From Escherichia phage vB_EcoM_DE7, in sequence record OL825705.1: a stretch of DNA of 64,000 nt. One strand, written 5' to 3'. Under the pieces are notes generated by a model. It made no database searches. It saw only the letters and a list, made by a program, of their open reading frames with translations, and was not told the DNA's origin. How positions within the stretch are numbered: position 1 is the stretch's first letter; each line of letters opens with the position of its first letter. This document shows, piece after piece, positions 9,379 through 10,794 of this stretch. A program made the position numbers and the translations under genes.

Positions 9379-10794
9379 ATGAGCGAATTATTTAAACATG
9401 CGCACCTTCATGCAGGTCGAACTGAAAATGGTGCTGTAAACCATACTTCATCAATGTCTGCTCTGGTGGACTTTTACAAAGCCGCTGGCTCAAGCCGTAG
9501 CAATGTAGAAATCTTACCAGACCTGTTCTACAAAGCTTTGCGTGAGGATGTTGATGTTGCAGTTCGTATTTTACTGCATATGCGAGATGTACGAGAAGGT
9601 ATGGGTGAGCGTAAAGCTTTCCGAACTGTTTTACTTCAAGCGGTTGAAGGTAAAGTTTTAGAACCTACACAGGTTCTTCGCATTATGGATAAGATTGCAG
9701 AACTTGGTCGTTTTGATGACTTCAAAATCTTCGTAGGTACTCGTTTTGAGACAGATGCCTTCAAACATTTAGAAGCAGCATTACTAGACCCTGCAACAGC
9801 AGGTTTAGCGGCTAAGTGGTTACCACGAGTAAAACCACGCCACAAACAGTTTGTAAAACGTTTCTGTAAGTTTGCAAACTTAAGCGAGAAGGAGTATCGC
9901 ACACTGTTATCTGCACTGTCTGATACGGTTGAGCAAAAAATCTCTGCTAATGAGTTTGGTAAGATTGACTACAGCAAGGTTCCTTCACTCGCTGCTGCAC
10001 GTTACCAAAAACTCTTTAACCGTAAAGATGGGGAACGTTACAAAGCTTACGTTGAGTCACTCTCAAAGGGTGAGGCTAAGATTAACGCTGGCGCTGTTTA
10101 CCCATACGATGTGATTAAATCTATCAAGTATGGTAATGCAGATGTTGCTAATGAGCAGTGGAAAGCACTACCAAACTGGATGGCAGAAGGTGAAAACATC
10201 CTGTGTATGACTGATGTTTCAAGCTCAATGTCTTGGGTGAATCTTGGCTCAATCACTGCCCTTGATATTGGTGTATCACTTGCCTTGTATGTAGCAGAAC
10301 GCAATACAGGTTGTTTTAAAGATGAGTTAATGGTCTATTCAACAAACCCACATTTCATTGAACTGAGTGGTGATTTACGAAACCGTCATCGTCAGGTGAT
10401 GCGTCACGTTGAATATGGCTCAACTAACTTACAAGCAGCTTTTGACCGCATTCTTGAGGTAGGTAAGCGAAACAACTTGACTCAGAAAGATATGCCAAGT
10501 AAGCTTATTATCTTCTCTGATATGGAGTTTAATCAGGTTGATGGTGCAAATGGTCGTACAAACTTTGAAGCAATTCAGAGTAAGTACAAAAAAGCTGGAT
10601 ACGAAATGCCACAACTAGTATTCTGGTACTTAGCAAACCGTAATGGTACTTGCGAAGTATCTGTTAAGGATAATGGTGTAGCAATGGTATCAGGGTTCTC
10701 TCCAGCCACTTTAAAAGCTCTGCTTGGTGGTGAGAAGTTTGACCCAATCAGCGTAATGCTCAAAGCAGTAATGATTGACCGTTACATCTGGTAA
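9379..10794 (+). CDS. vWA (MIDAS) domain protein with N-terminal helical domain; possibly TROVE/Ro60-like (471 aa)
   Basis: C-terminal ILCMTDVSSSMSW (DxSxS MIDAS) and LIIFSDMEF vWA-like strands; N-terminal domain unassigned. Confidence 0.5.
   Translation: MSELFKHAHLHAGRTENGAVNHTSSMSALVDFYKAAGSSRSNVEILPDLFYKALREDVDVAVRILLHMRDVREGMGERKAFRTVLLQAVEGKVLEPTQVLRIMDKIAELGRFDDFKIFVGTRFETDAFKHLEAALLDPATAGLAAKWLPRVKPRHKQFVKRFCKFANLSEKEYRTLLSALSDTVEQKISANEFGKIDYSKVPSLAAARYQKLFNRKDGERYKAYVESLSKGEAKINAGAVYPYDVIKSIKYGNADVANEQWKALPNWMAEGENILCMTDVSSSMSWVNLGSITALDIGVSLALYVAERNTGCFKDELMVYSTNPHFIELSGDLRNRHRQVMRHVEYGSTNLQAAFDRILEVGKRNNLTQKDMPSKLIIFSDMEFNQVDGANGRTNFEAIQSKYKKAGYEMPQLVFWYLANRNGTCEVSVKDNGVAMVSGFSPATLKALLGGEKFDPISVMLKAVMIDRYIW

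Follow-up and report, generated by a model that had tools for sequence, protein, structure and literature searches.

The Ro60 protein and its Y RNAs form a conserved RNA-surveillance system, whose bacterial and phage roles are poorly understood. In Thermus phage phiLo the protein phiRo60, which is of the TROVE type and has a solved structure (PDB 9KOP, 9L5Y), binds two Y-like RNAs with a CGAA motif encoded upstream of it (Yrl1, Yrl2) and attenuates the host PNPase (PMC12135203). The Y RNA search of Chen et al. 2014, which included 22 phages, was confined to TROVE-annotated genomes (PMC4201824). Here we describe a gene at 9379-10794 (+) of a 64,000-nucleotide stretch of Escherichia phage vB_EcoM_DE7 (OL825705.1; the whole stretch is called the window below), together with a family of stem-plus-box and tRNA-shaped RNAs encoded beside it, which are probably partners of its Ro60-like product. 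The source genome is a Felixounavirus (FelixO1-like myovirus), and many Salmonella and Escherichia phages match the region at 95-98% identity.

The window protein shares 457 of 471 residues (97% identity) with bas63_0130 (gp130) of Escherichia phage JohannRWettstein (Bas63), and the same genes flank both; judged by sequence and setting, the two are orthologues. Deletion of gene 130 severely shrinks Bas63 plaques on hosts that express the Ppl defence system, an effect reversed by complementation, and gp130 carried on a plasmid or inserted in the T7 genome restores the plaquing of T7 on such hosts (PhageMaP preprint, 2024, PMC11482910). The same authors found that the gp130 structure resembles Ro60, and they speculated, naming no candidate, that some of the neighbouring "tRNA" genes are Y RNAs (PMC11482910). 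In the LeBron overexpression screen, a mycobacteriophage homologue of the family was moderately toxic. The annotation of the window protein as Ro60-like is thus correct but already known, and its orthologue has a recently reported phenotype; the RNAs turn the preprint's speculation into specific, testable molecules for a protein with a counter-defence phenotype. The gene and the parts of its product are these:

9379-10794, + strand: gene of the Ro60-like protein (orthologue of Bas63 gp130; PHROG 850), an open reading frame (ORF) with an ATG start, 471 amino acids
9460-10167, + strand: predicted N-terminal all-helical (HEAT-like) ring domain, about residues 28-263
10198-10743, + strand: C-terminal vWA domain, its MIDAS site complete; residues 275-455 match Pfam DUF7788
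10213-10227, + strand: MIDAS residues D279-x-S281-x-S283
10423-10425, + strand: MIDAS residue T349
10519-10521, + strand: MIDAS residue D381

An AlphaFold model of the protein, made without templates from an alignment of 40 family members (43-88% identical to the window protein), is confident (mean predicted local distance difference score, pLDDT, 87.6; predicted template-modelling score, pTM, 0.88) and places an all-helical region at about residues 28-263 ahead of an alpha/beta vWA fold. The top seven Foldseek matches of this model are Ro60 proteins, aligned over the full length with E values of 1e-8 to 1e-6; Ro60 was ranked first by two independent structure-comparison programs, both domains being aligned in the same order. 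The modelled architecture is therefore that of Ro60, a helical (HEAT-like) repeat ring closed by a vWA domain, in that order. Other vWA structures, including the protein-binding domains Midasin-MIDAS and Ku80-vWA, make up the second tier of fold matches. The motif MTDVSSSMSW occupies residues 277-286, and D279, S281, S283, T349 and D381 are all invariant in the 40-sequence alignment. An earlier note on this DNA, made from the letters alone, had reported a MIDAS motif (TDVSSSMSW) and a vWA-like C-terminal part, both of which are borne out. It had called the N-terminal half helical and unassigned; the model agrees that this half is helical, and the second description is only partly right, since Pfam DUF2828 (PF11443) matches there with 103.2 bits (cut-off 29). 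DUF7788 (PF25043) matches the C-terminal half with 148.9 bits (cut-off 27.1), so that the profile searches proposed in that note returned two DUF families and no TROVE, and phrog_850 ("RNA-binding protein") matches the full length (E 2e-183). The structure prediction proposed at the same time gave the confident two-domain model, with Ro60 proteins as its best fold matches, in support of the note's suggestion of a Ro60-like protein. On this predicted fold, the gene product is a divergent phage-type Ro60, a closed helical-repeat ring capped by a MIDAS vWA domain.

The family is found in 709 of 50,697 deposited phage records (about 1.4%), some of which already name it "RNA-binding protein" or "Ro-like RNA binding protein". 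Its hosts include Enterobacteria, Vibrio, Aeromonas, Campylobacter, Sinorhizobium, Synechococcus, Mycobacterium, Listeria, Staphylococcus, Enterococcus and Bacillus, and so span Proteobacteria, Campylobacter, Firmicutes, Actinobacteria and Cyanobacteria.

The RNA elements of the window lie in the tRNA array that follows the gene:

12204-12330, + strand: YrlA-like circularly permuted tRNA-like RNA (direct reading, motif scan, covariance model, covariation)
12204-12211 with 12322-12329, + strand: its outer stem, with G at 12330
12213-12219, + strand: its box, ACAGCAA
12256-12272, + strand: its T-arm
12273-12290, + strand: its closed acceptor-like stem-loop
12293-12307, + strand: its D-arm
12116-12185, + strand: short stem-plus-box unit, AGACCAA-AU-ACAGCAA (box 12125-12131) ... 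UUGGUCU-G (strict scan)
11498-11565, + strand: short unit whose stem is followed by a variant box, AGACCAA-UU-GCAGCAA ... UUGGUCU-G (from a relaxed box scan with folding; the weakest evidence class)
11665-11719, + strand: possible short unit, AGACCGUAU-GCAGCAA ... ACGGUCU-G (weak covariance-model match, 18.5 bits, E 0.95; fold; tentative)
10960-16410, + strand: the tRNA array, 24 genes called by ARAGORN and one at 11412-11483 from Rfam

The YrlA-like element shares the strand of the Ro60-like gene and lies 1.4 kb downstream, within a gap of 432 nucleotides (nt) between tRNA-Asp and tRNA-Lys. Its ends pair, AGACCGUU at 12204-12211 with AACGGUCU at 12322-12329, and UACAGCAA stands directly 3' of the 5' strand. 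The T-arm is canonical (GAAGG-UUCGAUU-CCUUC); 3' of it come a perfect stem of 7 base pairs (bp) with a tetraloop, 2 nt, and a D-arm with an AAUGG loop (12256-12307). Alignment of the element to the tRNA model is partial. It amounts to a tRNA whose acceptor end is closed and whose opening lies at the anticodon. Its 5' hairpin loop varies freely, which argues against a working anticodon, and the closed stem has three different sequences in three genera, all of them fully compensated. About 245 Ounavirinae genomes keep the element. Most of these annotate nothing there; tRNA-Thr or tRNA-OTHER is given in a few, and spurious antisense ORFs cover the element in some. Of the short units, that at 12116-12185 is conserved in eight Ounavirinae genomes, and an equivalent of that at 11498-11565 follows tRNA-Glu in Moogle. 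The earlier note's atypical tRNA-like genes near the protein gene thus have a concrete counterpart in the permuted element.

Several details of this interval are recorded here in their own right. At D-stem position 12295 the window has a C-C mismatch in the third pair (GUCU...GCAC), and Bas63 and the other Ounavirinae examined have GUGU...GCAC; the window copy thus differs by one base. Short "hypothetical protein" ORFs run antisense to RNA units both in the window (12171-12323, - strand) and in Bas63 (bas63_0137 and bas63_0138). They are probably spurious, because the window ORF reads the T-loop as ...EGIEPSP..., a typical reversed-tRNA artefact; in knockout screens such annotations would stand in for the RNA, and the PhageMaP text gives no phenotypes for g137 or g138, the Bas63 antisense ORFs over the RNA (PMC11482910). 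Just 3' of the tRNA-like unit lies a further structure:

12333-12478, + strand: long conserved hairpin holding a third AGACC...GCAAGGUCUG motif (fold -54 kcal/mol)

The stem of this hairpin covaries between the window and Bas63, and its interior is strongly different in Bas63.

Similar RNAs occur beside the gene in other phages. We examined the gene neighbourhoods of thirteen distant phages, using a script whose full signature is a T-arm, a closed stem immediately 3' of it and a D-arm after that; 11.4 Mb of shuffled sequence held this signature once. Permuted modules on the gene strand number two in Sinorhizobium phiM7, two in Bacillus PBC2 and three in Enterococcus EFDG1, and Klebsiella FBKp34 and the mycobacteriophage LilDestine also have them; 10 of 12 permuted modules are enclosed by a stem of 7-9 bp with an ACAGCAA-type box abutting its 5' strand. 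Bare units of 50-70 nt form tandem series next to the gene in Aeromonas LAh_6, Campylobacter CP8, Listeria LMSP-25, Staphylococcus CF9, LilDestine and FBKp34. A third form, found in LAh_6, FBKp34, Cronobacter S13 (two) and Synechococcus B3, consists of open-ended tRNA-like genes of 110-121 nt in which a closed stem and box replace the anticodon arm; here the same RNA appears in its alternative circular permutation. The consensus of 94 strict units runs from an A-rich flank through a stem start (A/U)(G/A)(G/A), a U-rich spacer of 0-2 nt, ACAGCAA and an insert to the 3' strand, directly followed by G in 79%. Gene-strand units cluster beside the gene in phages of at least five bacterial phyla. 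Two further permuted modules, with a T-arm and a closed 7-bp stem, were seen in EFDG1 (L017:3971-4083) and LMSP-25 (L018:3027-3063); their long stem joins the body directly, without an ACAGCAA box, and they may be a second subtype.

Covariation supports all four helices of the permuted tRNA topology. For covariance model R1 we used 11 sequences, setting aside the two phiM7 copies, trimming units to their stem boundaries and modelling 7 outer pairs; a MAFFT alignment had been dropped, its outer stem being out of register. R1 gives the window element 105 bits, recovered both phiM7 copies that had been set aside (51 and 50 bits), and added members in S13, LAh_6 and Synechococcus B3. Across 13 sequences, 98.0% of cells are paired, against 42-46% with slid partners; 20 of 23 pairs change on both sides, and none of 500 shuffles reaches the observed score. 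In a replicate with 20 uncultivated-virus sequences from outside the seed, the corresponding values are 98.2% against 37-46%, and 21 of 23 pairs. Most units can also be aligned over their whole length to the Rfam YrlA model (RF02553), with scores of 22-44 bits against a gathering threshold of 69 bits. As controls we used a 40-kb region of T5, with 24 tRNAs and stable RNAs of its own, and positions 1-50 kb of Bas63; neither holds a genuine R1 match, and strict units occur in them at a background of a few per 100 kb, with one in the T5 region, on the tRNA strand about 2.3 kb outside the tRNA cluster.

The units are also linked to the gene by position and strand. At the first 11 loci, 33 strict units lie on the gene strand and 1 on the opposite strand; 21 lie within 700 nt of the gene (p = 6e-13), at a density about 21 times that in shuffles. 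We then have two sets from IMG/VR. In 74 uncultivated-virus loci selected by protein (39-48% identical to the window protein), strict units number 61 on the gene strand against 4 opposite, and 47 of the 61 fall in the 1-kb flanks that make up 19% of the sequence (p = 1.6e-22); at least one lies within 1 kb of the gene in 40 of these loci, and R1 matches are on the gene strand in 27 of 27 cases, 20 of them within 1 kb. The reciprocal search, by RNA alone (ACAGCAA, 20-50 nt, GGTTCGANTCC), gave 120 loci and 0.97 Mb. The protein is encoded in 34 of them, always on the same strand and at a median distance of 452 nt, where its frequency in deposited phage genomes leads one to expect about 0.3 loci. 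A candidate Y RNA is thus present nearby on the same strand in the window, and the linkage appears in both search directions across many phages. The earlier note's idea that atypical tRNA-like neighbours might be Y-RNA partners of the protein holds up in comparative genomics, with a YrlA-like mimic 1.4 kb downstream that is linked to the gene across phages.

Neither the window nor any of ten distant loci holds a Y RNA that reaches the Rfam gathering score, and we found no description of these RNAs in Rfam or the searched literature. The stem-plus-box family therefore appears to be undescribed. It explains "atypical", "pseudo" and 110-120-nt tRNA calls in phage annotation, along with spurious antisense ORFs.

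By analogy with Ro60 and Y RNA, it seems likely, although by no means assured, that the protein and the neighbouring RNAs form a functional ribonucleoprotein particle. Several results weigh against this. Strict units are lacking within 1 kb of the gene in 34 of the 74 protein-selected loci, and the gene is missing from 13 RNA-selected loci that extend 3 kb or more to either side. Cronobacter GAP32 has no units and Vibrio phi-pp2 only one doubtful unit of 214 nt, so that the association is not universal or else some copies are too divergent to detect. The Rfam YrlA model does not match the window element even at E 10; the canonical GNCGAAN0-1G box is absent from the stem of the window RNA and occurs in the window at chance frequency. 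(The sole suggestive match, GGCGAAGG at 12253-12260, overlaps the T-stem and was rejected.) Because the covariation alignments were fitted to the model, their pairing is inflated, a bias that is lessened and not removed by the control with slid partners and by the recovery of held-out copies. On the side of the protein, Pfam TROVE (PF05731) matches neither the window protein (hmmscan, E up to 1) nor the 40 relatives (E up to 10), and vWA_Ro60 (PF25045) does not match the window protein (hmmscan, E up to 1), although 8 of the 40 relatives match it weakly (best E 4.7e-4). Sequence searches of the PDB with the single protein and with a hidden Markov model (HMM) of the 40-sequence profile came back empty, with no Ro60, and a search of NCBIfam with the window protein gave only noise.

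A further difficulty comes from the T7 experiments, and it favours the alternative that the protein acts alone, inhibiting at the protein level with a MIDAS face that binds Ppl or some other host protein, the neighbouring RNAs being irrelevant. To our knowledge T7 encodes no tRNAs, and it should therefore lack the stem-plus-box RNAs; since gp130 from a plasmid or from the T7 genome nevertheless suffices against Ppl, the effect would be independent of phage-encoded partner RNAs. The ligands of vWA domains are usually bound through the MIDAS face, the MIDAS site is here complete and invariant, and protein-binding domains such as Midasin-MIDAS and Ku80-vWA are the next-best structural matches. 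One of three explanations would account for protection by gp130 alone: (i) the protein acts on Ppl directly, perhaps with its MIDAS face; (ii) it uses host RNAs, which could substitute for the phage-encoded partners in the rescue of T7; or (iii) the RNAs serve another function of the particle. We regard action by the protein alone as a serious possibility, if on the whole a rather unlikely one.

It is improbable, in our view, that the units are simply parts of tRNA arrays, such as processing signals, decayed or permuted tRNA genes or scars of mobile elements, that lie near the gene only because the gene tends to adjoin arrays. The majority of units do lie in or beside arrays, several are annotated as pseudo-tRNA or tRNA-OTHER, and homing endonucleases are common in such arrays. 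Yet the 24-tRNA region of T5, with its own stable RNAs, has none; in LilDestine, Staphylococcus CF9 and Aeromonas LAh_6 the units adjoin the gene without a tRNA array; unit density peaks a few hundred nt from the gene and is not even through the arrays; and decaying pseudogenes would not retain 98% pairing by way of compensatory changes together with an invariant single-stranded box across phyla. We give equally little credence to a role in cis, in which the units would regulate the mRNA of the gene itself, for example as an autoregulatory leader or trailer bound by the protein, and would not be Y-like RNAs acting in trans. This would suit the many 5'-leader units that lie 16-70 nt ahead of the start codon (loci L032, L040, L065, L059 and L085), as do units in Listeria, Enterococcus and Campylobacter phages. 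It fits poorly with units downstream of the gene in the window, Klebsiella FBKp34, LilDestine, Staphylococcus CF9, L093 and L086, with the distance of the window units (0.7-1.5 kb, behind promoter-like sites and several tRNAs), with the presence of several copies per locus, and with open-acceptor-end forms that resemble tRNA-processing substrates; even so, under a cis-regulatory role the protein would still bind the module. That the likeness to Ro60 is convergent or an artefact of modelling, the product being a plain vWA protein with an unrelated helical domain, is very improbable, because the identity to Ro60 proteins of only 10-17%, the missing TROVE match and the failure of the family profile HMM to find Ro60 in the PDB are set against a confident template-free model, first rank for Ro60 in two independent programs with both domains in order, matches of some relatives to the Ro60-specific vWA model of Pfam, and YrlA-like RNAs nearby, an independent hallmark of Ro60.

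If the protein and RNAs do form a particle, we propose that the RNAs share a protein-binding module, a stem of 7-9 bp with a single-stranded (U)ACAGCAA box just 3' of its 5' strand. This module stands alone (50-70 nt) or replaces the anticodon arm within a tRNA-shaped body (110-130 nt, in two circular permutations), and, as in Ro60 and Y RNA, it would hold the RNA on the Ro60-like ring. We infer by the same analogy that the module is the binding site of the protein and the tRNA mimic the part that binds an effector. Lacking an anticodon, the mimic would engage a tRNA-recognising host factor or a defence nuclease; alternatively, it would gate the access of RNA ends to the ring cavity, or it could link the ring with an exoribonuclease in the manner of Ro60-Y RNA-PNPase complexes. 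The net effect would be to protect phage RNA or tRNA function and to counter host defence. Because the mimic keeps the elbow and acceptor features by which proteins recognise tRNA and has no anticodon loop, it could be an uncleavable decoy or adaptor for tRNA-directed host factors. A bolder proposal would be that DUF2828-type Ro60 proteins and ACAGCAA-box RNAs make up a widespread phage ribonucleoprotein system, in which the mimics are uncleavable decoys or adaptors for host factors that recognise tRNA (for instance anticodon nucleases, other RNA-directed defences, exoribonucleases or tRNA repair enzymes), many "pseudo-tRNAs" and unannotated gaps in arrays are counter-defence RNAs, and Ppl acts through RNA; we offer it tentatively and think it doubtful as a whole. 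If it is true that tRNA mimics are decoys or adaptors, an RNA-based layer would be added to phage counter-defence.

The immediate surroundings of the gene agree with the earlier note, which had put it directly upstream of the tRNA array: a small DUF5681 protein gene lies upstream and tRNAs downstream, in the window as in annotated relatives, and tRNA-Pro (10960) is the next gene 3', at a spacing of 166 nt. Signals in the flanks are as follows:

9310-9339, + strand: sigma-70-like promoter match TTGACA-18-TAAAGT, 40 nt 5' of the start codon (consensus scan only)
10805-10933, + strand: spacer between the gene and tRNA-Pro, with a terminator-like hairpin (10805-10836) overlapping two TTGACA-type promoter-like sites (consensus scan)
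10813-10841 and 10904-10933, + strand: the promoter-like sites of the spacer (consensus scan; putative function)

The promoter match at 9310-9339 is weak evidence, because the regional count of such sites equals chance; the spacer is nearly identical in Bas63. No AAA+ MoxR ATPase gene is found among the neighbours in the window or in annotated relatives, which does not fit a MoxR-associated vWA co-chaperone; an "ATPase" is annotated 1 kb upstream of the gene in the Aeromonas LAh_6 locus only.

Other features of the array and of related loci are the following. The tRNA at 11412-11483 (Rfam, 55 bits) is missed by ARAGORN and corresponds to the tRNA-Glu of Bas63 by position and homology. Between tRNA-Pro and tRNA-Glu the window has an HNH endonuclease ORF (11037-11411) without counterpart in Bas63, where these tRNAs are 7 nt apart; the ORF resembles a homing-endonuclease insertion and is common to some relatives (among them Meda and nataliec). 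Its listed TTG start (10976) overlaps tRNA-Pro, so that the real start is probably an internal ATG (MRFLKECP...). The gap between tRNA-Ile and tRNA-Ser, where Bas63 and Moogle annotate tRNA-Arg(AGA), has no normal tRNA call by ARAGORN or Rfam in the window; a weak tRNA-Sec-like Rfam match at 12965-13044 (23 bits) may be a degenerate or atypical tRNA. A strict stem plus ACAGCAA match at 36559-36670 (+), in the structural-gene region and conserved in Bas63 (L001:19912-20023), is most likely a chance match within coding sequence. In Moogle (Citrobacter phage, KM236239, L003) and PBC2 (KT070867, L016), the deposited tRNA strand is opposite to that given by Rfam, and the tRNAs share the strand of the Ro60-like gene. 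A few kb from the Ro60-like gene, the tRNA region of EFDG1 holds a full transfer-messenger RNA (tmRNA) gene (L017:2071-2421, 141 bits), and a "drum" RNA lies among the tRNAs of LMSP-25 (L018:1941-2039, 50 bits). Group I intron matches occur a few kb downstream of the gene in two IMG/VR loci (L059:10696-10922 and L082:11103-11310), one scoring 71.5 bits and the other 36.7 bits, below the 50-bit gathering score.

Of the known systems, T5 (NC_005859) likewise has small stable tRNA-like RNAs (RNA1, RNA2 and others) of unknown function between its tRNA genes; we tried these as members of the family and rejected them, the only R1 match being an artefact that spans two adjacent tRNAs, and Tequintavirus is not among the sample of tblastn matches listed for the protein. 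The study of Bas63 gp130 named no RNA partner (PMC11482910), whereas here the Bas63 candidates lie under the antisense ORFs bas63_0137 and bas63_0138. Unlike Ro60/Rsr proteins (roughly 500-540 amino acids), the window protein is shorter, at 471, has no detectable TROVE signature and is filed as DUF2828 plus DUF7788; canonical Y RNAs carry a (GN)CGAA motif, the candidate RNAs here ACAGCAA beside a stem. This second, sequence-divergent Ro60-like family would have its own matched RNA family, where earlier Y RNA searches covered TROVE neighbours only. The bare 50-70-nt module is comparable to YrlB and the tRNA-shaped form of 110-130 nt to YrlA (RF02553; PMC4201824; bioRxiv 10.1101/312249), with which the window element has in common the order T stem-loop, closed acceptor-like stem-loop, 2 nt and D stem-loop; in both, the ends pair at the position of the anticodon stem, where the Ro60-binding module joins YrlA. 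Like YrlA, the units are encoded within 4 kb of a Ro60-type gene on the same strand. Unlike YrlA, the family has unpermuted versions with open acceptor ends, bare modules are common, and units are often in tandem and embedded in tRNA arrays; it would amount to a natural experiment in which a protein-binding module has been grafted on a tRNA scaffold in either circular permutation. In several lineages RNA-repair genes also lie near the phage gene: Listeria LMSP-25 has RtcB there and LAh_6 has Rnl2, GAP32 has both an RNA ligase and a CCA-adding enzyme, and S13, too, has a CCA-adding enzyme, an arrangement that echoes the bacterial rsr-yrlBA-rtcBA operon.

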